From the NCBI RefSeq assembly GCF_053078305.1, contig NZ_CP166879.1: DNA of 64,000 bases. One strand, 5' to 3'. A model generated the notes under the pieces. It did not search any database. It was not told the DNA's origin and saw only the letters and a program-made list of their open reading frames with translations. The translations under genes and the position numbers were made by a program. Position 1 is the stretch's first letter. The number at the start of each line of letters is the position of its first letter. Positions 3,780 to 50,580 of the stretch are shown here, in pieces.

Positions 3780-4475
3780 ATGATCTACTTACGCAAAGCA
3801 AATGAACGTGGTCATGCAAATCATGGCTGGCTGGACTCCTGGCATACTTTCTCTTTTGCCAACTATTACGATCCGAACTTTATGGGCTTCTCCGCGCTGC
3901 GCGTGATTAACGACGACGTGATTGAAGCAGGGCAGGGCTTCGGCACTCACCCGCATAAAGATATGGAAATTTTGACCTACGTGCTGGAAGGTACTGTTGA
4001 GCACCAGGACAGCATGGGCAATAAAGAGCAGGTTCCGGCGGGTGAGTTCCAGATTATGAGTGCGGGTACGGGTATTCGTCACTCAGAGTACAACCCAAGC
4101 AGCACCGAGCGTCTGCATCTGTATCAGATCTGGATCATGCCTGAAGAAAACGGTATTACGCCGCGTTATGAACAGCGTCGCTTCGATGCAGTGCAGGGCA
4201 AACAACTGGTGCTTTCGCCAGATGCGCGTGATGGTTCATTGAAAGTGCATCAGGATATGGAACTGTACCGCTGGGCGTTGCTGAAAGATGAGCAGTCGGT
4301 GCATCAGATTGCCGCTGAACGCCGCGTCTGGATCCAGGTGGTGAAAGGCAATGTCACCATTAACGGCGTGAAAGCCTCGATCAGCGATGGTCTGGCAATC
4401 TGGGATGAGCAGGCAATCTCCATCCATGCGGATAGCGACAGCGAAGTGTTACTGTTCGATCTGCCGCCGGTTTAA
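3780..4475 (+). CDS. yhhW: Pirin-like cupin (quercetin 2,3-dioxygenase)
   Basis: 231-aa ORF with cupin His motif GFGTHPHKDMEILTYVLEG; synteny upstream of gntR. Confidence 0.9.
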   Translation: MIYLRKANERGHANHGWLDSWHTFSFANYYDPNFMGFSALRVINDDVIEAGQGFGTHPHKDMEILTYVLEGTVEHQDSMGNKEQVPAGEFQIMSAGTGIRHSEYNPSSTERLHLYQIWIMPEENGITPRYEQRRFDAVQGKQLVLSPDARDGSLKVHQDMELYRWALLKDEQSVHQIAAERRVWIQVVKGNVTINGVKASISDGLAIWDEQAISIHADSDSEVLLFDLPPV

Positions 4476-13348: not shown

Positions 13349-15535
13349 ATGTCCGATCGTATCGATAGAGACGTGATTAACGCGCTAATTGCAGGCCATT
13401 TTGCGGATCCTTTTTCCGTACTGGGAATGCATAAAACCACCGCGGGACTGGAAGTCCGTGCCCTTTTACCCGACGCTACCGATGTCTGGGTGATTGAACC
13501 GAAAACCGGGCGCAAACTCGCAAAACTGGAGTGTCTCGACTCACGGGGATTCTTTAGCGGCATCATTCCGCGACGTAAGAATTTTTTCCGCTATCAGTTG
13601 GCTGTTGTCTGGCATGGTCAGCAAAACCTGATTGATGATCCTTACCGTTTTGGTCCGCTAATCCAGGAAATGGATGCCTGGCTATTATCTGAAGGTACTC
13701 ACCTGCGTCCGTATGAAACCTTAGGCGCGCATGCAGATACTATGGATGGCGTCACAGGTACGCGTTTTTCTGTCTGGGCTCCAAACGCCCGTCGGGTCTC
13801 GGTGGTTGGGCAATTCAACTACTGGGACGGTCGCCGTCACCCGATGCGCCTGCGTAAAGAGAGCGGCATCTGGGAACTGTTTATCCCTGGGGCGCATAAC
13901 GGTCAGCTCTATAAATACGAGATGATTGATGCCAATGGCAACTTGCGTCTGAAGTCCGACCCTTATGCCTTCGAAGCGCAAATGCGCCCGGAAACCGCGT
14001 CTCTTATTTGCGGGCTGCCGGAAAAGGTTGTACAGACTGAAGAGCGCAAAAAAGCGAATCAGTTTGATGCGCCAATCTCTATTTATGAAGTTCACCTGGG
14101 CTCCTGGCGTCGCCACACCGACAACAATTTCTGGTTGAGCTACCGCGAGCTGGCCGATCAACTGGTGCCTTATGCTAAATGGATGGGCTTTACCCACCTC
14201 GAACTACTGCCCATTAACGAGCATCCCTTCGATGGCAGTTGGGGTTATCAGCCAACCGGCCTGTATGCACCAACCCGCCGTTTTGGTACTCGCGACGACT
14301 TCCGTTATTTCATTGATGCTGCACACGCAGCTGGTCTGAACGTGATTCTCGACTGGGTGCCAGGCCACTTCCCGACTGATGACTTTGCGCTTGCCGAATT
14401 TGATGGTACGAACTTGTATGAACACAGCGATCCGCGCGAAGGCTATCATCAGGACTGGAACACGCTGATTTACAACTATGGTCGCCGTGAAGTCAGTAAC
14501 TTCCTCGTCGGTAACGCGCTTTACTGGATTGAACGTTTTGGTATTGATGCGCTGCGCGTCGATGCGGTGGCGTCGATGATTTATCGTGACTACAGCCGTA
14601 AAGAGGGGGAGTGGATCCCGAACGAATTTGGCGGGCGCGAGAATCTTGAAGCGATTGAATTCTTGCGTAATACCAACCGTATTCTTGGTGAGCAGGTTTC
14701 CGGTGCGGTGACAATGGCTGAGGAGTCTACCGATTTCCCTGGCGTTTCTCGTCCGCAGGATATGGGCGGTCTGGGCTTCTGGTACAAGTGGAACCTCGGC
14801 TGGATGCATGACACCCTGGACTACATGAAGCTCGACCCGATTTATCGTCAGTATCATCACGATAAACTGACCTTCGGGATGCTCTACAACTACACTGAAA
14901 ACTTCGTCCTGCCGTTGTCGCATGATGAAGTGGTCCACGGTAAAAAATCGATTCTCGACCGCATGCCGGGCGACGCATGGCAGAAATTCGCTAACCTGCG
15001 CGCTTACTATGGCTGGATGTGGGCATTTCCGGGCAAGAAACTGCTGTTCATGGGGAACGAATTTGCCCAGGGCCGCGAGTGGAACCATGACGCCAGCCTC
15101 GACTGGCATCTGTTGGAAGGCGGCGATAACTGGCACCACGGTGTCCAGCGTCTGGTGCGCGATCTGAACCTCACCTACCGCCACCATAAAGCGATGCATG
15201 AACTGGATTTTGACCCGTACGGCTTTGAATGGCTGGTGGTGGATGACAAAGAACGCTCGGTGCTGATCTTTGTGCGTCGCGATAAAGAGGGTAACGAAAT
15301 CATCGTTGCCAGTAACTTTACGCCGGTGCCGCGTCATGATTATCGCTTCGGCATTAATCAGCCAGGCAAATGGCGTGAGATCCTCAATACCGATTCCATG
15401 CACTATCACGGCAGTAATGCAGGCAATGGCGGCACGGTACACAGCGATGAGATTGCCAGCCATGGTCGTCAGCATTCACTAAGCCTGACGCTACCACCGC
15501 TGGCCACTATCTGGCTGGTTCGGGAGGCAGAATGA
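13349..15535 (+). CDS. glgB: 1,4-alpha-glucan branching enzyme
   Basis: 728-aa GH13 enzyme; first gene of the glgBX-glgCAP cluster. Confidence 0.95.
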
Positions 15536-17505
15536 CACAACTCGCCATTGGCAAACCCGCTCCCCTCGGCGCGCATTACGACGGTCAGGGCGTCAACTTC
15601 ACACTTTTCTCCGCTCATGCCGAGCGGGTAGAGCTGTGTGTCTTTGACGCCAATGGCCAGGAACATCGCTATGACTTGCCAGGGCACAGTGGCGACATTT
15701 GGCACGGTTATCTGCCGGATGCGCGCCCGGGTTTGCGTTATGGTTATCGCGTTCATGGCCCCTGGCAACCCGCCGAGGGGCATCGCTTTAACCCGGCGAA
15801 GTTGTTGATTGATCCTTGCGCGCGGCAAATTGACGGGGAGTTTAAAGATAACCCGCTGCTGCACGCCGGTCATAATGAACCTGACTATCGCGACAACGCC
15901 GCCATTGCGCCGAAATGCGTAGTGGTGGTTGATCACTATGACTGGGAAGATGATGCCCCGCCGTGCACGCCGTGGGGCAGCACCATCATTTATGAAGCCC
16001 ATGTCAAAGGATTAACATACCTGCACCCGGAGATCCCGGTCGAGATCCGTGGCACTTATAAAGCCCTCGGGCATCCGGTGATGATCAACTATTTGAAACA
16101 GTTGGGCATTACCGCGCTGGAACTGCTGCCGGTGGCGCAGTTTGCCAGTGAACCACGTCTGCAACGCATGGGGCTAAGTAACTACTGGGGGTACAACCCG
16201 GTGGCGATGTTTGCGCTGCATCCGGCGTATGCCTGCTCGCCAGAAACGGCGCTGCATGAGTTTCGCGATGCAATCAAAGCACTGCATAAAGCGGGTATCG
16301 AAGTCATTCTTGATATCGTGCTCAACCATAGTGCGGAACTGGACCTCGACGGCCCGTTATTCTCGCTGCGTGGGATCGACAACCGTAGCTATTATTGGAT
16401 AAGAGAAGACGGCGATTATCACAACTGGACCGGTTGTGGCAACACGCTCAATTTGAGTCACCCGGCGGTGGTGGATTATGCCAGCGCCTGCCTGCGTTAT
16501 TGGGTAGAAACCTGCCACGTCGATGGTTTCCGCTTTGATCTGGCGGCAGTCATGGGTCGTACGCCAGAGTTCCGTCAGGATGCGCCGTTGTTTACCGCTA
16601 TCCAGAACTGCCCGGTGCTCTCGCAGGTGAAGTTAATTGCTGAACCGTGGGATATCGCTCCTGGTGGTTATCAGGTGGGAAATTTCCCGCCGCTGTTTGC
16701 CGAGTGGAACGATCATTTCCGCGATGCTGCCCGTCGTTTCTGGCTACATTATGATTTGCCTCTGGGGGCGTTTGCCGGGCGTTTTGCTGCCTCCAGCGAT
16801 GTTTTTAAACGTAATGGTCGTCTGCCGAGTGCCGCGATTAATCTCGTCACCGCACATGACGGTTTTACGCTTCGCGACTGCGTTTGCTTCAACCATAAAC
16901 ACAATGAAGCAAACGGAGAAGAAAATCGCGACGGGACCAACAACAATTACAGTAACAATCATGGTAAAGAAGGGTTAGGCGGTACTCTTGATCTGGTTGA
17001 ACGGCGGCGCGACAGCATTCATGCCCTGTTAACAACGTTGTTGCTCTCCCAGGGCACGCCGATGTTACTGGCCGGTGACGAACATGGTCACAGCCAGCAT
17101 GGCAATAACAATGCCTACTGTCAGGATAACCAATTAACCTGGTTGGACTGGTCGCAGGCAAGCAGTGGTTTAACCGCATTTACCGCCGCGTTAATCCATC
17201 TGCGCAAGCGTATTCCCGCTTTGGTGGAGAATCGCTGGTGGGAAGAAGGCGACGGCAATGTCCGTTGGCTAAATCGATATGCTCAACCTTTAAGCACGGA
17301 TGAGTGGCAAAACGGGCCGAAACAGCTGCAAATTCTGCTCTCGGATCGCTTTTTGATCGCAATTAACGCCACGCTTGAGGTAACAGAGATTGTTTTACCT
17401 GCAGGGGAGTGGCACGCCATTCCCCCATTCGCTGGAGAGGATAACCCAGTGATTACGGCTGTCTGGCAGGGACCTGCACACGGATTGTGTGTGTTCCAGA
17501 GATGA
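15532..17505 (+). CDS. glgX: Glycogen debranching enzyme
   Basis: 657-aa GH13 ORF; overlaps the glgB stop by 4 nt. Confidence 0.95.
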
Positions 17506-22833: not shown

Positions 22834-24351
22834 ATGGACAGAATGATGCCAAATAGAAAATGGATTTTGACCTCGCTGATAATGACTTTTTTCGGCATCC
22901 CCATACTGGCGCAATTTTTGGCAGCGGTTGTTGCCATGCTGGGTGTCGGGCTTACCGGTATTATTGAAGTTTGTAATATCCTTATCACGCCAACAATTTA
23001 TCTTCTACTCAACGTCTTTATGCTGACGCTGGGGGCGATAATAATATTTTTCTCTGGTCGCGTGTGGGCCGGTGATAGCGCGCCAGAAAACAGAGAAATA
23101 GCCGTCTGGCGGCAATGCTTTTTTCTCTTACCCGCGCTATTAACCCTGGTTGGCTGGATAATCACGCTACATCTGGCAGATTATCAATTTCGCCAGATGG
23201 GAGCTGGTTGGTTGGCAAACCTTATGCTTCCCTGGTTGGGCGTTTTTTTAGTCTCATTAGTGGGTGGTGAGTACTGGTGGATGGTCATTATTCCCGTTGG
23301 GGTGCATATCAGTTTTTCGCTGGGATACGCCTGGCCGACCAGATATCCTTTATCCGGCACGTCCGGACTACGTTGCCGTAACTTACTCCTGTTTCTACTT
23401 CTCTTACTTGGTATTGTCGCCGGGTATCAGGCCCATTTATATAAGCAGCAAAATCCTGGTGTCGGTGTACGCGAAAATATTGATATCTGGGCCTGGCGAC
23501 CCGATAAACTCAATAATCGACTGACGCCGCTGCGTGGCAAACCGCAAATTCAGTTTAGGCAAAACTGGCCGCGAATCGATGGCGCCACGGCTGCGTACCC
23601 AATTTATGCTTCTGCATTTTATGCATTAAGTGTAATACCAGAGGATTTTCACGTTTGGGATTATCTGGAAAACTCTCGTACGCCAGAAGCATATAACAAA
23701 ATCGTTAAGGGCGATGCTGATATTATTTTCGTGGCGCAACCTTCCGGTGGGCAAAAAAAACGTGCAAAGGAATCTGGTGTCACTTTGCTGTACACCCCCT
23801 TTGCCCGTGAAGCATTCGTTTTCATCGTCAATGCGGATAATCCGGTTAATTCCCTGACTGAACAACAGGTGCGTGACATTTTCAGTGGTGCAATTACCAA
23901 CTGGCGTACTTTTGGCGGTAACGATCAGGAGATCCAGACCTGGCAGCGCCCGGAAGACTCTGGCAGCCAGACAGTGATGCAATCACAGGTCATGAAAAAT
24001 GTCCGCATGATCTCGCCGCAGGAAACGGAAGTGGCAAGCGTGATGGAGGGAATGATTAAAGTCGTTGCCGAATACCGTAATACAAACAACGCAATAGGCT
24101 ATACCTTCCGCTATTACGCGACGCAAATGAATGCTGATAAAAATATAAAATTGCTAGCGATTAACGGTATTACACCGACGGCGGAAAACATTCGCAACGG
24201 CAAATATGCGTACATCGTCGATGCATTTATGGTGACGAGAGAAAATAAAACGTCAGAAACACAAAAACTGGTCGAATGGTTTTTAACGCCGCAGGGGCAG
24301 AGTCTGGTAGAAGATGTGGGATATGTGCCGCTGTATAAAATCTTACCTTAA
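22834..24351 (+). CDS. Membrane-anchored protein: N-terminal polytopic domain (~6 predicted TM helices) plus C-terminal periplasmic solute-binding-protein-like domain (PBP superfamily, possibly phosphate/oxyanion type)
   Basis: 505-aa ORF. First ~200 aa hydrophobic; C-terminal part has SBP-like segments (DGATAAYPIYASAFY, FVAQPSGGQ, LLAINGITPTAENIRNGKYAY). K-12 carries only a pseudogene (yzgL) at this position as far as I recall. SBP subfamily is a guess. Confidence 0.6.
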   Translation: MDRMMPNRKWILTSLIMTFFGIPILAQFLAAVVAMLGVGLTGIIEVCNILITPTIYLLLNVFMLTLGAIIIFFSGRVWAGDSAPENREIAVWRQCFFLLPALLTLVGWIITLHLADYQFRQMGAGWLANLMLPWLGVFLVSLVGGEYWWMVIIPVGVHISFSLGYAWPTRYPLSGTSGLRCRNLLLFLLLLLGIVAGYQAHLYKQQNPGVGVRENIDIWAWRPDKLNNRLTPLRGKPQIQFRQNWPRIDGATAAYPIYASAFYALSVIPEDFHVWDYLENSRTPEAYNKIVKGDADIIFVAQPSGGQKKRAKESGVTLLYTPFAREAFVFIVNADNPVNSLTEQQVRDIFSGAITNWRTFGGNDQEIQTWQRPEDSGSQTVMQSQVMKNVRMISPQETEVASVMEGMIKVVAEYRNTNNAIGYTFRYYATQMNADKNIKLLAINGITPTAENIRNGKYAYIVDAFMVTRENKTSETQKLVEWFLTPQGQSLVEDVGYVPLYKILP

Positions 24352-24453
24352 GCAGGATAATCATATGGATACCGGTATTATTCGCCTGAACGCGGCCAAT
24401 GCTCGTTTTGTTTATCAACCGTTTACACGCAATCAGCGGAAGAGGGAGTAATT

Positions 24454-25230
24454 ATGCAATGCAGCCCCGCCATGCAGGCATTAATTGAGCAGATTTATCA
24501 TATTTTTCGTCGTTATCCGGTGCCGTCGAGATTTCATGTTTGTTGTCCTTACTGCTTTAGCGAAGAACAACAACAAGCCTTAAGAGGGGTTTCACTGCGT
24601 GCCATACCTTTCCCTTTATTACATGCCTGGGGAACAAGTATTGGTCCTACCCCGCAAAATGATGATGAGATTCGCTATTTATTACCCAGATTGTTTGAAT
24701 TTATTTCCCAAAGGCAATTTCCAGGCATTTATGAAGGCTGCTGTTTACAGAGAATAGCAGAGGCAGATAACCAGAACTGGCGAACGGACGAACTACAAAT
24801 AATTAGCGATTTCGCCTATTTATATATGCAGGATTGGGTGTCGGCTAAGGAGGTCGTAGAACTGGAAATAATATTAGAAATGTTTTATCGCGGTGGTATA
24901 AAGATTGAACCCTTACTTGACGCCATTATGTCCATTTCCGGTTACTGGCCGACGGCGTCTATGGCATGTTTGCTCTGGCGTAACAGTAAAGAATACGTCG
25001 AAAATAGCGATTTTGAGCAGAGTGATGATAATAAAACTATTACCACTCAAATTAATACCTGGGCTAGAAATAATCATCCTTTTCTGAAAGAAAGAGCGCG
25101 ACAAGCGATTGAGAACCCACTAAAACAGCCTGAACCAATGACAGAATATCAAGTCTGGGAAGACGACTGGATGATTGATGAGTGTTTATGCGCGATGTAT
25201 GACGCATCACCCGAACAATCAGGACAATAA
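24454..25230 (+). CDS. Hypothetical soluble protein, Cys-containing N-terminus (CCPYC); no family recognised
   Basis: 258-aa ORF, AT-richer than flanking core genes; its stop is 2 nt before the next ORF's start. Confidence 0.5.
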   Translation: MQCSPAMQALIEQIYHIFRRYPVPSRFHVCCPYCFSEEQQQALRGVSLRAIPFPLLHAWGTSIGPTPQNDDEIRYLLPRLFEFISQRQFPGIYEGCCLQRIAEADNQNWRTDELQIISDFAYLYMQDWVSAKEVVELEIILEMFYRGGIKIEPLLDAIMSISGYWPTASMACLLWRNSKEYVENSDFEQSDDNKTITTQINTWARNNHPFLKERARQAIENPLKQPEPMTEYQVWEDDWMIDECLCAMYDASPEQSGQ

Positions 25231-25232
25231 AG

Positions 25233-25823
25233 ATGAATAAAATCAGACTTTATATTTATCCGCTATATCTCGGCTTTGTTATTGTGCCGTTGTTGGTGTG
25301 GCCGACGGTGGTTGTTGTTGGTATCACACTGAGTTTTCTAATGGAGATGCTGTTCTCAAATTCGTTCATGCACAGGCGTATTTCCCTTCTGGAATTACAA
25401 CTTGGGTTATTGGCTGAATATACGCTTTTGTTCTGCGCCATATGTTGCGTTGGTTGGCAATTTGCTCGCATAACTCAATCTGAATTGAAAAGCAAACTGC
25501 ATTATTGGCTGGTATTTGTACCAGTTTATTTCTGGTTGCTCCTGTGGAATATCATTTTCTATGTCGCGCCAGCGAAAATTGCATTGCTGGAAAATATGCG
25601 CAGTTTCTTTCTGACCGTTGTCTGGCTCCCACTGAATTTTTCGCCATTTTGGTCTCAACCGTGGATTGACTTTGTCGGTCCAATAAGCGCACAGCTTGGT
25701 TTTGCGTTGGGATATTATTGCCAGTGGCGTAGCAAAAATAGAAGCCAGAGGAAGAAGTGGGGCGAGTGGGTAATGTGCTTAAGTTTTGTTACGTTGGGTA
25801 TGATGGCGTGGGCTTTGCGGTAA
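25233..25823 (+). CDS. Hypothetical integral membrane protein (4-5 predicted TM helices)
   Basis: 196-aa hydrophobic ORF tightly coupled to the preceding ORF; AT-rich. Confidence 0.5.
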   Translation: MNKIRLYIYPLYLGFVIVPLLVWPTVVVVGITLSFLMEMLFSNSFMHRRISLLELQLGLLAEYTLLFCAICCVGWQFARITQSELKSKLHYWLVFVPVYFWLLLWNIIFYVAPAKIALLENMRSFFLTVVWLPLNFSPFWSQPWIDFVGPISAQLGFALGYYCQWRSKNRSQRKKWGEWVMCLSFVTLGMMAWALR

Positions 25824-25876
25824 TTCCCTGAATCAAAAAGTAGGTCAGATTGTTGACAACGTGGCGCTTTGTTCAT

Positions 25877-25975
25877 GCCTGATGCGGCGTGAACGCCTTA
25901 TCAGGCCTACAAAATCATGCAAATTCAACATATTGCATAAACCACGTAGGCCTGATAAGCGTAGCGCATCAGGCA
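25877..25975. repeat. BIME: two inverted REP sequences (gcctgatgcggcgtgaacgccttatcaggcctac ... gtaggcctgataagcgtagcgcatcaggca)
   Basis: Canonical enterobacterial REP consensus (GATGCGGCG ... GGCCTAC) read directly; intergenic, downstream of glpD. Confidence 0.85.
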
Positions 25976-26037
25976 ATTTTGTGTTTGTCATCAGTCTCAG
26001 GCCAGATTGAAATCTGACCTGATCACCTTACGTTAAT

Positions 26038-27543
26038 TTACGACGCCAGCGACAACTTCTGCTGCGTATATTCCACCAGCCACTGACTCACACGAGATTG
26101 TTGATCCGCATTCAGCCACATGCCTTGTTTTGTGCGACGCCACAGGGCATCGTCGGCGCGGCGGACCCATTCGTGATCCACCAGATATTTCAGCTCCGCT
26201 TCGTAGAACTCATGACCGAAATCCTCCCCAAGGTCGCTTACCGCTCCCGCATTGCCGAGCAGCAGCTCGCTGTTGCTGCCATAAGTACGCGCGTAATGAC
26301 GTGCCAGCGATTCGGTCAGGAACGGATAACGACGGCGCAGACGAGCTGCGTAATCGTCGCGGTCGCCTTCAATGGCACCACCCGGCAGCACGCTCTCTTT
26401 CGTCCATGCCGGGCCAATGCCCTGATAATACGGCGTCAGTTTTTCCAGCGCATGTTCCGCCAGTTTGCGGTAGGTGGTCAACTTACCGCCGAATACCGAC
26501 AGCAGCGGTGCTTTGCCGTTTTCATCATGGATATCAAGGGTGTAATCACGGGTAATAGCCTGCGGCGAGTCGGACTCATCATCACACAGCGGACGCACAC
26601 CGGAGTAGGTCCAGACGATATCGTCACGGCTTAACTGCTTTTTAAAGTGCGTGTTATACACTTTCAGCAGGTAATTGATTTCACTCTCTTCAATCTTCAC
26701 TGCTTTCGGATCACCTTTGTATTCCACATCGGTGGTGCCGATGATGGAAAACTCGTCCATCCACGGGATCACGAACACAATGCGTTTATCTTCGTTTTGC
26801 AGAATGTAGGCCTGCTTTTGGGTATGCACGCGCGGCACCACAATATGGCTACCTTTGATCAGGCGAATGCCATAAGGCGAAGGCAGATGCATCCCGTCGT
26901 CGAAGAACTGTTTCACCCACGGGCCGGTGGCGTTAACCAGGCCGCGCGCTTGCCAGCTATATTTTTTGCCGGTATCGATATCTTCCGCTTCCACAATCCA
27001 CAGGCCGTTTTCGCGACGAGCAGAAGTAGCACGAGTACGAGTAAGCACTTCGCCGCCTTTACGCACCACCATCTGGGCGTTGGCGAGTACCAGACGGGCG
27101 TCGTCTACCCAACAGTCAGAATATTCGAATCCGCGCTTAATTTCCGGTTTTAACACTGAGTTTGCGCCAAAACGCAAACCAGTTGATCCCGGCAGGCTGG
27201 TGCGTTTACCCAGATGATCGTACATAAACAGACCAATGCGAATCATCCACGCCGGGCGCAGATGCGGACGATGTGGCAGGCGAAAACGCATCGGGAAGGC
27301 GATATGCGGGGCCATTTTCAGCAGCACTTCACGTTCAGCCAGCGCCTCGCTGACCAGGCGGAATTCATAGTGCTCAAGGTAGCGCAGGCCACCGTGGATG
27401 AGTTTTGAACTGGCGGAAGAGGTCGCGCAAGCGAGATCCTGCGCCTCCAGCATCAGCACGGATAAACCGCGTCCAGCGGCGTCTGCCGCGATACCAGCAC
27501 CATTGATGCCGCCACCTATCACAATCAGATCTTTGGTTTCCAT
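26038..27543 (-). CDS. glpD: Aerobic glycerol-3-phosphate dehydrogenase
   Basis: Start placed at METKDLIVIGGGINGAGIAADAAGRGL (501 aa, FAD-binding GxGxxG). Confidence 0.95.
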   Translation of the reverse strand: METKDLIVIGGGINGAGIAADAAGRGLSVLMLEAQDLACATSSASSKLIHGGLRYLEHYEFRLVSEALAEREVLLKMAPHIAFPMRFRLPHRPHLRPAWMIRIGLFMYDHLGKRTSLPGSTGLRFGANSVLKPEIKRGFEYSDCWVDDARLVLANAQMVVRKGGEVLTRTRATSARRENGLWIVEAEDIDTGKKYSWQARGLVNATGPWVKQFFDDGMHLPSPYGIRLIKGSHIVVPRVHTQKQAYILQNEDKRIVFVIPWMDEFSIIGTTDVEYKGDPKAVKIEESEINYLLKVYNTHFKKQLSRDDIVWTYSGVRPLCDDESDSPQAITRDYTLDIHDENGKAPLLSVFGGKLTTYRKLAEHALEKLTPYYQGIGPAWTKESVLPGGAIEGDRDDYAARLRRRYPFLTESLARHYARTYGSNSELLLGNAGAVSDLGEDFGHEFYEAELKYLVDHEWVRRADDALWRRTKQGMWLNADQQSRVSQWLVEYTQQKLSLAS

Positions 27544-40324: not shown

Positions 40325-42409
40325 ATGGAAAGCAAACGTCTGGATAATGCCGCGCTGGCGGCGGGGATTAGCCCCAATTACATCAATGCCCACGGTAAAC
40401 CGCAGTCGATTAGCGCCGAAACCAAACGGCGTTTGCTTGACGCGATGCATCAACGTACCGCCACGAAAGTGGCGGTAACGCCAGTCCCGAATGTCATGGT
40501 TTATACCAGCGGCAAAAAAATGCCGATGGTGGTGGAGGGCAGCGGCGAATATAGCTGGCTGCTGACCACCGAAGAAGGAACGCAGTACAAAGGCCATATA
40601 ACGGGGGGCAAAGCGTTCAATCTACCGACGAAGCTGCCGGAAGGTTATCACACGCTGACGCTTACCCAGGAAGACCAGCGCGCGCATTGCAGGGTGATTG
40701 TCGCCCCGAAACGCTGTTACGAACCGCAGGCGTTGCTGAATAAACAAAAGCTGTGGGGTGCCTGCGTCCAGCTTTATACGCTGCGATCGGAAAAAAACTG
40801 GGGTATTGGGGATTTTGGCGATCTCAAAGCGATGCTGGTGGATGTGGCAAAACGTGGCGGGTCGTTCATCGGCCTGAACCCGATTCATGCGCTCTATCCG
40901 GCAAATCCGGAGAGCGCCAGCCCATACAGCCCGTCTTCTCGCCGCTGGCTGAATGTGATTTATATCGACGTTAACGCCGTCGAAGATTTCCATCTTAGCG
41001 AAGAGGCTCAGGCCTGGTGGCAGTTGCCGACCACGCAACAGACGCTGCAACAGGCGCGGGATGCCGACTGGGTCGATTACTCCACGGTTACCGCCCTAAA
41101 AATGACAGCATTACGAATGGCGTGGAAAGGTTTCGCGCAACGTGATGATGAGCAGATGGCCGCGTTTCGCCAGTTTGTTGCAGATCAAGGCGACAGCCTG
41201 TTCTGGCAGGCAGCCTTTGATGCGCTACATGCCCAGCAAGTGAAAGAGGACGAAATGCGCTGGGGCTGGCCTGCATGGCCAGAGATGTATCAGAACGTGG
41301 ATTCACCAGAAGTGCGTCAGTTCTGCGAAGAACATCGCGATGACGTTGATTTTTATCTCTGGTTGCAGTGGCAGGCTTACAGCCAGTTTGCCGCCTGCTG
41401 GGAGATAAGCCAGGGCTATGAAATGCCGATTGGCTTGTATCGTGATCTGGCGGTTGGCGTAGCGGAAGGTGGGGCGGAAACCTGGTGCGACCGTGAACTG
41501 TATTGCCTGAAAGCGTCGGTTGGCGCGCCGCCGGATATCCTCGGCCCGTTGGGGCAGAACTGGGGATTGCCGCCAATGGACCCGCATATCATCACCGCGC
41601 GTGCTTATGAACCGTTTATCGAGCTGTTGCGTGCCAATATGCAAAACTGCGGCGCATTACGAATTGACCATGTGATGTCGATGCTGCGTTTGTGGTGGAT
41701 ACCGTATGGCGAGACGGCGGATCAGGGGGCATACGTACACTATCCGGTGGATGATCTGCTCTCAATTCTGGCACTCGAAAGTAAGCGTCATCGCTGCATG
41801 GTGATTGGTGAAGATCTCGGTACCGTACCGGTAGAGATTGTCGGCAAGCTGCGCAGCAGCGGTGTTTACTCCTACAAAGTGCTCTATTTCGAAAACGACC
41901 ACGAGAAGACGTTCCGTTCACCGAAAGCGTACCCGGAGCAGTCGATGGCGGTTGCGGCGACACACGACCTGCCAACGCTGCGTGGTTACTGGGAGAGCGG
42001 GGATCTAACTCTGGGCAAAACCCTGGGGCTGTATCCGGATGAAGTGGTACTGCGCGGTCTGTATCAGGATCGCGAACTGGCGAAGCAAGGGCTGCTGGAT
42101 GCACTGCATAAATATGGTTGTCTGCCAAAACGTGCCGGGCATAAGGCATCGTTGATGTCGATGACGCCGACGCTGAACCGTGGTTTGCAGCGCTACATTG
42201 CCGACAGTAACAGTGCTCTGTTAGGACTACAGCCGGAAGACTGGCTGGATATGGCCGAACCGGTGAATATTCCTGGCACCAGTTACCAGTATAAAAACTG
42301 GCGACGCAAGCTTTCCGCAACGCTTGAGACGATGTTTGCCGATGATGGCGTGAACAAGTTGCTGAAGGATTTGGACAGACGGCGCAGAGCTGCAGCGAAG
42401 AAGAAGTAG
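40325..42409 (+). CDS. malQ: 4-alpha-glucanotransferase (amylomaltase)
   Basis: 694-aa ORF immediately downstream of malP. Confidence 0.95.
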   Translation: MESKRLDNAALAAGISPNYINAHGKPQSISAETKRRLLDAMHQRTATKVAVTPVPNVMVYTSGKKMPMVVEGSGEYSWLLTTEEGTQYKGHITGGKAFNLPTKLPEGYHTLTLTQEDQRAHCRVIVAPKRCYEPQALLNKQKLWGACVQLYTLRSEKNWGIGDFGDLKAMLVDVAKRGGSFIGLNPIHALYPANPESASPYSPSSRRWLNVIYIDVNAVEDFHLSEEAQAWWQLPTTQQTLQQARDADWVDYSTVTALKMTALRMAWKGFAQRDDEQMAAFRQFVADQGDSLFWQAAFDALHAQQVKEDEMRWGWPAWPEMYQNVDSPEVRQFCEEHRDDVDFYLWLQWQAYSQFAACWEISQGYEMPIGLYRDLAVGVAEGGAETWCDRELYCLKASVGAPPDILGPLGQNWGLPPMDPHIITARAYEPFIELLRANMQNCGALRIDHVMSMLRLWWIPYGETADQGAYVHYPVDDLLSILALESKRHRCMVIGEDLGTVPVEIVGKLRSSGVYSYKVLYFENDHEKTFRSPKAYPEQSMAVAATHDLPTLRGYWESGDLTLGKTLGLYPDEVVLRGLYQDRELAKQGLLDALHKYGCLPKRAGHKASLMSMTPTLNRGLQRYIADSNSALLGLQPEDWLDMAEPVNIPGTSYQYKNWRRKLSATLETMFADDGVNKLLKDLDRRRRAAAKKK

Positions 42410-42421
42410 AGTGCGGTTGAT

Positions 42422-42442
42422 GCCGGATGCGATGCATCCGGC
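42422..42442. terminator. Palindrome gccggatgcgatgcatccggc between convergent malQ and gntT (bidirectional terminator / REP-like)
   Basis: Perfect 9-bp arms, seen in the sequence. Confidence 0.55.
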
Positions 42443-42453
42443 AGTCAGTGTTA

Positions 42454-44069: not shown

Positions 44070-44130
<61 letters not shown>

Positions 44131-50529: not shown

Positions 50530-50580
50530 GTCAGGCAAGGCGTTCGTTGCCAGATGCGGCGTGAACGCCTTATCGCGCAG
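50530..50580. repeat. REP element (tgccagatgcggcgtgaacgccttatc) between yhgF and the feo promoter
   Basis: Same REP core as at 25877. Confidence 0.75.

Follow-up and report, generated by a model that had tools for sequence, protein, structure and literature searches.

The window analysed here, a stretch of DNA of 64,000 nt, carries glgA, glgP, three accessory ORFs, glpD (minus strand), glpE, glpG and glpR in that order. The first accessory ORF encodes a 505-aa product (22834-24351) that combines an N-terminal membrane region with a PstS-like PBP_like_2 domain, while the 258-aa (24454-25230) and 196-aa (25233-25823) products that follow match no Pfam family. GC content is 0.40-0.44 over 24400-25800 as against 0.50-0.57 in glgP and glpD, which bears out the initial annotation's description of an AT-rich gene pair at this site. 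Across E. coli the accessory module (22834-25823) is highly mosaic: among the 5,426 complete E. coli genomes that formed the sample for all multi-genome comparisons, only 37 contain the window's full architecture at ≥80% coverage. In O157 and B a second PstS-family gene takes the place of the middle accessory gene, some strains possess an additional ORF within the module, and Nissle-type strains have a fimbrial operon. The 196-aa ORF and glpD are convergent, and their stop codons (25821-25823 and 26038-26040) bound a 214-nt spacer.

One BIME-1 unit in the glpD spacer

Within this spacer, positions 25845-25999 constitute one complete BIME-1 (RIB/RIP) unit. It opens with a conserved left flank (25845-25875, plus strand, TCAGATTGTTGACAACGTGGCGCTTTGTTCA), which forms the left imperfect terminal inverted repeat and is kept in paralogous copies, and continues with a Y-type REP, or palindromic unit (25876-25910, plus strand, TGCCTGATGCGGCGTGAACGCCTTATCAGGCCTAC), a 35-nt L linker (25911-25945, plus strand) that is conserved across copies, and a Z1-type REP inverted relative to Y (25946-25975, minus strand, GTAGGCCTGATAAGCGTAGCGCATCAGGCA), before closing with the conserved right flank (25976-25999, plus strand, ATTTTGTGTTTGTCATCAGTCTCA), the right imperfect terminal inverted repeat. 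The linker includes an IHF-like site (25923-25935, ATTCAACATATTG) with a single mismatch to the consensus WATCAANNNNTTR, and the inverted arms of the two REPs are perfect over 14 nt (25897-25910 with 25946-25959) and 11 nt (25876-25886 with 25965-25975). A palindrome with 12-bp arms, TCAGGCCAGATT-GA-AATCTGACCTGA, extends on the minus strand from 25997 to 26022, leaving 15 nt (26023-26037) to the glpD stop; taken as a 10-bp hairpin (25999-26020), it follows BIME-1 and is separated from that stop by 17 nt (26021-26037). The sequence of this glpD 3' spacer hairpin is AGGTCAGATT.

The assignment to BIME-1 follows the published definition of a Y and a Z1 unit in inverted orientation (PMC1187871, PMC3333891), of which the spacer holds exactly one each, together with a long conserved L linker that bears a predicted IHF-like consensus site, as stated for the family in PMC3333891. 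No other unit accompanies it between the stop at 25823 and that of glpD at 26038, and its presence or absence as a whole element varies among isolates. Megablast of 25700-26150 matched a stretch of about 155 nt (25844-25998) to the intergenic regions fepA-entD, ccmH-narP and fdnI-yddM at 86-90% identity, and the alignment of these three paralogous copies shows Y units near-identical to that of the window; because the paralogous loci match all of 25844-25998, the conserved flanks and the 35-nt linker belong to the unit. The same 451-nt query, which contains BIME-1, returned 131,766 matches in 5,425 of the 5,426 E. coli genomes (median 22 per genome), and the exact Z1 30-mer occurs in at least 120 stretches from E. 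coli, E. albertii, Pseudocitrobacter and Citrobacter genomes. RNA transcribed in the glpD sense is predicted to fold at -82.5 kcal/mol (shuffled sequences, -49.1 ± 4.2; z = -7.9), with Y pairing with Z1 in the minimum-free-energy structure.

The window copy agrees with described BIME-1/RIB/RIP elements in its inverted Y and Z1, its L linker of about 35 nt with an IHF-type site, and its occurrence as a single extragenic unit at the 3' ends of transcription units that is variably present among strains, and departs from them in nothing substantive (the Y unit has T/A for G/C at CCGGAT/ATCCGG, and the IHF site has its one mismatch). The unit has orthologues at the corresponding position of K-12, O157:H7, E. 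coli B and strain Res13. The REP annotated in K-12 between glpD and yzgL is orthologous to the window unit in both position and architecture, and identity with K-12 is 94.6% over the 390 nt around it (window 25759-26148). K-12 differs in that the neighbouring accessory genes, intact in the window, are deleted and replaced by the chimeric yzgL. Since K-12 has the same element at the same place, the glpD-spacer BIME-1 is an already known, catalogued E. coli repeat. Such elements of E. coli were reportedly described by Gilson, Bachellier and Hofnung, by Boccard and Prentki (1993) and by Oppenheim et al. (1993).

The two inverted REP units and the further palindrome that the initial annotation had recognised between the accessory genes and glpD are real, far beyond chance expectation, and were rightly called a REP/BIME cluster. 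The related REPs that the same annotation had placed at 44070-44110 and 50530-50580 are real too, though both are degenerate: the former is a single inverted Z2-like REP (44073-44110), the latter a truncated Y REP (50548-50574, 26 of 27 nt identical) that lacks the GGCCTAC tail and lies in the spacer downstream of a 773-aa gene. A short REP-like perfect hairpin absent from that earlier list, TGCCGGATGC-GA-TGCATCCGGCA, is found at 42417-42443 in the 44-nt spacer of convergent ORFs ending at 42409 and 42454. We rejected GCCGGATGCG at 15714 as a REP; it lies inside a 657-aa ORF (15532-17505).

Deletions and spacer alleles of the glgP-glpD interval

The glgP-glpD deletion of K-12, about 2.7 kb in size, is a microhomology event between two 10-nt direct repeats inside the flanking ORFs, as undeleted relatives have GGGGCGAGTG in both. 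The right-hand copy lies on the plus strand at 25759-25768, within the tail of the 196-aa ORF, and the equivalent of the left junction at 23055-23064 (plus strand), within the 505-aa PstS-like gene; this position reads TGGTCGCGTG in the window and GGGGCGAGTG in K-12-like undeleted alleles, a perfect left copy being present for example at positions 755-764 of locus L010. The junction in K-12 reads TTTTTCTC-GGGGCGAGTG-GGGAACG and occurs in exactly this form in 1,225 of the 5,426 genomes. K-12 realigns with the window from 25759 onward, so that the whole of BIME-1 is retained, and the distance from the junction to the first REP base is 108 nt. Slippage or recombination between the two 10-bp direct repeats gave rise to the deletion. 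The same event created the K-12 orphan yzgL (L001, 3789-4073), a chimera that opens with the first ~70 codons from the PstS-like gene and continues, out of frame, through the tail of the 196-aa ORF.

A second, independent deletion, present in 229 genomes, fuses the 196-aa ORF, at codon ~70, to the left flank of BIME-1 through a 7-nt repeat, whose right-hand copy is GCGCTTT at 25864-25870 (plus strand). It is the only breakpoint that touches BIME-1, and it is not a product of REP-REP recombination.

The spacer itself exists in two alleles over 25787-26037, one BIME-bearing (the window, K-12, O157 and B) and the other BIME-less (Nissle and many others). The BIME-less allele, found in at least 3,022 genomes including Nissle 1917, departs sharply from the window sequence after 25786, taking in the final 12 codons of the ORF, and matches it again from exactly the glpD stop onward; its spacer is 53 nt long and contains a different hairpin, CCCGGTTG...CAACCGGG. 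For the comparison, window positions 25787-26037 were set against positions 4085-4183 of locus L002. Once the unit is removed the alleles are only about 54% identical, as opposed to 90-94% in the flanks, and therefore a simple insertion or deletion does not relate them; the pattern suggests that 25787-26037 is an old recombined segment. BIME carriers at the locus number about 2,355 (2,126 genomes matching ≥80% of 25700-26150, plus the 229 with the second deletion), so that BIME-bearing genomes make up ~43% and BIME-less ones ~56%, together 99% of the collection.

The initial annotation had proposed that the location of the REPs at the edge of a variable region might explain how the K-12 deletion, or the insertion seen here, arose, and had called for a multi-genome comparison of the glgP-glpD interval. 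In the 5,426 genomes the K-12 breakpoints map outside the REPs, an outcome that the annotation itself counted against its proposal: the junction falls at ORF-internal 10-nt repeats 108 nt away, with BIME-1 kept. The origin of the insertion fares no better under that proposal, with allele boundaries at 25787 and at the glpD stop, and exact-motif and blastn-short searches turned up no REP where the variable interval adjoins glgP. What survives concerns the breakpoints of the variable region more generally, since the 229-genome deletion does end in the BIME flank, but there too by microhomology rather than by REP-REP recombination. BIME-1 as marker or cause of the K-12 deletion is refuted, and the idea is partly true for this minority deletion class.

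Terminator stem-loops at the ends of many BIME-1 units

In 42 copies from E. coli, E. albertii and Pseudocitrobacter the median length of the unit is 153 nt, the left flank has the consensus TCAGATTGcTGACAAaGTGCG and the right flank, as reverse complement, the consensus TGAGACTGATGACAAACGCA; the ends TCAGATTGcTGACAAaG and, reverse-complemented, TGAGACTGATGACAAAC make up an imperfect terminal inverted repeat. Setting the unit ends by these conserved flanks, we aligned the sequences on either side of each copy with each other and, as a control, combined every left flank with right flanks taken from other copies, using the 99th percentile of the control as cutoff. Own-flank alignment scores exceed this cutoff in 17 of 28 copies and, in a second count that used relaxed motif matching and removed orthologous duplicates, at 18 of 39 independent loci (generally L015-L134). 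The flanking direct repeats are 16-27 nt long, fold as hairpins and abut the unit within 0-2 nt, with an A-run usually preceding the left copy and a T-run usually following the right one. The repeated sequence is the locus-specific terminator hairpin of the neighbouring gene. At both ccmH-narP (L007/L014) and ymdF-rutG (L093/L135) the empty site consists of exactly one hairpin and T-run, and the occupied site reads hairpin, unit, hairpin. The flanking repeats look like a target-site duplication of the terminator stem-loop or, equivalently, like a structure prone to precise loss.

This arrangement recalls MITEs, with which BIME-1 shares a length of about 150 nt, the lack of coding sequence, imperfect terminal inverted repeats (TCAGATTGcTGACAAA / TGAGACTGATGACAAA) and direct repeats flanking the unit at many loci; it differs from them in its flanking repeat, an entire locus-specific hairpin (~20 nt) rather than a short duplication of fixed length, and in the window the repeat is vestigial. 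According to a review, MITE signatures are absent from REPs (PMC3184786). REPINs, which are mobilised by RAYT (TnpA-REP) transposases, are likewise similar to the window unit, whose two inverted REPs pair into one long hairpin in the predicted fold (z = -7.9). IS200/IS605-type enzymes, however, produce no target duplication (PMC2817692), whereas many BIME-1 copies have flanking 16-27-nt direct repeats, and the favoured mechanism, an IS200/IS605-like RAYT, does not predict the duplication of a ~20-nt terminator hairpin. We mention, tentatively and with more doubt than conviction, that BIME-1 units might be MITE-type insertions into intrinsic terminator stem-loops that duplicate the whole ~16-27-nt hairpin, the glpD copy being a decayed example. 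The layout after insertion would be an A-run and hairpin, the 153-nt unit with its imperfect terminal inverted repeats, and a second hairpin with the T-run; at glpD the right hairpin would have remained intact and the left copy would have collapsed between two CAGATTG repeats. Hairpin duplication goes unmentioned in the papers compared, which covered RAYTs, REPINs and reviews but not the BIME literature of the 1990s.

At glpD, a consensus scan of 25600-26200 detected neither a canonical promoter nor a canonical terminator, and a GC-rich stem-loop followed by a T-run is absent from the present sequence of this interval and appears only in the reconstructed pre-insertion sequence. In-silico removal of the unit and one copy of an 11-nt repeat yields, on the glpD strand, the stop, a 17-nt spacer, the 10-bp hairpin and then ACTTTTTGATT, the make-up of a standard intrinsic terminator. 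BIME-1 thus occupies the former glpD terminator and parts the hairpin from its T-run. The present sequence retains the likeness to an intrinsic terminator in the 10-bp GC-containing hairpin soon after the glpD stop, the reconstructed site adding the T-run, and differs from one in that the hairpin is followed by the BIME flank. The palindrome at 25997-26022 is the copy of the glpD terminator's stem-loop that has survived. On the other side of the unit, the 11-nt direct repeat AGGTCAGATTG (25842-25852, plus strand; AGGCCAGATTG at 25999-26009) is a possible vestige of the duplicated target hairpin, and CAAAAAGT, which precedes it, is the old glpD terminator T-run on the minus strand.

The 11-nt repeat is imperfect in the window and perfect in E. 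coli B, and by analogy with other BIME-1 loci it may be a trace of target duplication. We dropped it as firm evidence for a simple target-site duplication, 7 of its 11 nt being the unit's own conserved CAGATTG. Set beside a MITE, the window copy has an imperfect terminal inverted repeat and only the 11-nt direct repeat, which is imperfect and runs into the end of the unit; with the unit boundaries taken from other copies, the window's own flanks give a direct-repeat score of 5-6, which is at control level and not significant. On the left the locus reads AGGT|CAGATTG, a vestige only, and on the right it has the full AGGCCAGATTGAAATCTGACCT. Most likely, the unit would have inserted at the glpD terminator hairpin and duplicated it, and the left copy would then have been lost for the most part in what may have been a one-step deletion between two CAGATTG repeats; under such a history the unit-less spacer of the BIME-bearing allele would have the junction AAAAAGTAGGTCAGATTGAAATCTGACCT. 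An empty site of this allele was found in 0 of 5,426 genomes (junction-specific 63-nt query, ≥80% coverage) and in none of the metagenome contigs (exact 23-nt pattern), and the insertion at the glpD locus is therefore not directly observable or polarisable.

Competing readings and significance

Taken as a whole, we read the locus, with a probability of about 0.9, as an ordinary single BIME-1 lying against the glpD terminator stem-loop and a bystander to the K-12 deletion. It is unlikely that the REP cluster is instead a recombination hot spot that set the glgP-glpD boundary and produced the K-12 deletion. BIMEs occur preferentially in strain-specific loops, which hold 71% of BIME-1 length (PMC1187871), the BIME-bearing segment is itself polymorphic, and one deletion class of 229 genomes does end at 25864-25870 in the BIME-1 left flank; set against these points, that class pairs 7-nt microhomology with an ORF-internal site and involves no second REP, the K-12 junction (1,225 genomes) is ORF-internal at a 10-nt repeat, 108 nt off the REP and with the BIME kept, the glgP side of the interval is without REP, and the allele boundaries at 25787, in the ORF, and at the glpD stop both miss the BIME edges. 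Comparably improbable is a native bidirectional terminator whose REP resemblance has no bearing on mobility and from which the BIME-less allele was derived by deletion. The convergent-gene position and the hairpin adjoining the glpD stop would fit such a structure, and loss of a unit between flanking direct repeats would give the same empty sites as at ccmH-narP and ymdF-rutG, but the unit is one of a multi-copy family whose sequence does not depend on the locus and whose ends are defined, and the alleles are only ~54% identical without the unit, compared with 90-94% in the flanks.

A still smaller chance attaches to the possibility that the spacer holds a dedicated small RNA gene (ES036/CssrF) in place of a generic repeat. 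Rfam model RF02751 (ES036) does match 25911-25953 with 39.3 bits, above its gathering score of 37.6, but the matched stretch is the L linker common to all BIME-1 copies, so that the model recognises the repeat family; since ES036 models a generic L linker, the match is not good evidence for an sRNA gene. The interval 25600-26200 has no promoter-like site, and the linker, lying between convergent genes, would be transcribed as 3'UTR. The ES036 (CssrF, RF02751) model probably matches every BIME-1 copy. Matches to naRNA4 (REP325) at 25839-25907 stayed below threshold (27-35 bits against 59.5), and we dropped that identity, the matches reflecting REP similarity only.

As an ordinary BIME-1, the unit may be expected to share the roles described for its family. 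Its linker, as DNA, would bind IHF by analogy with published family work, and the REP hairpins in the 3'UTRs of glpD and of the accessory operon would serve transcripts from both directions as a 3' structure, blocking 3'-5' decay and aiding transcription stop. Because no canonical terminator scored here, these termination and stabilisation roles draw on the literature for other REPs, which describes them as 3'UTR terminators and decay blocks with strong context dependence, and which places ~60% of E. coli REPs between convergent genes, such pairs being more highly expressed (bioRxiv 10.64898/2026.03.23.713779).

The finding of this BIME-1 in itself matters very little, the element being a catalogued repeat. 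It corrects a plausible but wrong inference, in that the K-12 glgP-glpD deletion and yzgL stem from 10-bp microhomology and not from the REP cluster, and it uncovers a strong spacer polymorphism in E. coli that may affect glpD transcript ends. The terminator-hairpin duplication at other BIME-1 loci is the only item that may merit follow-up; if unreported and general, it would bear on the long-standing question of how REPs and BIMEs spread.
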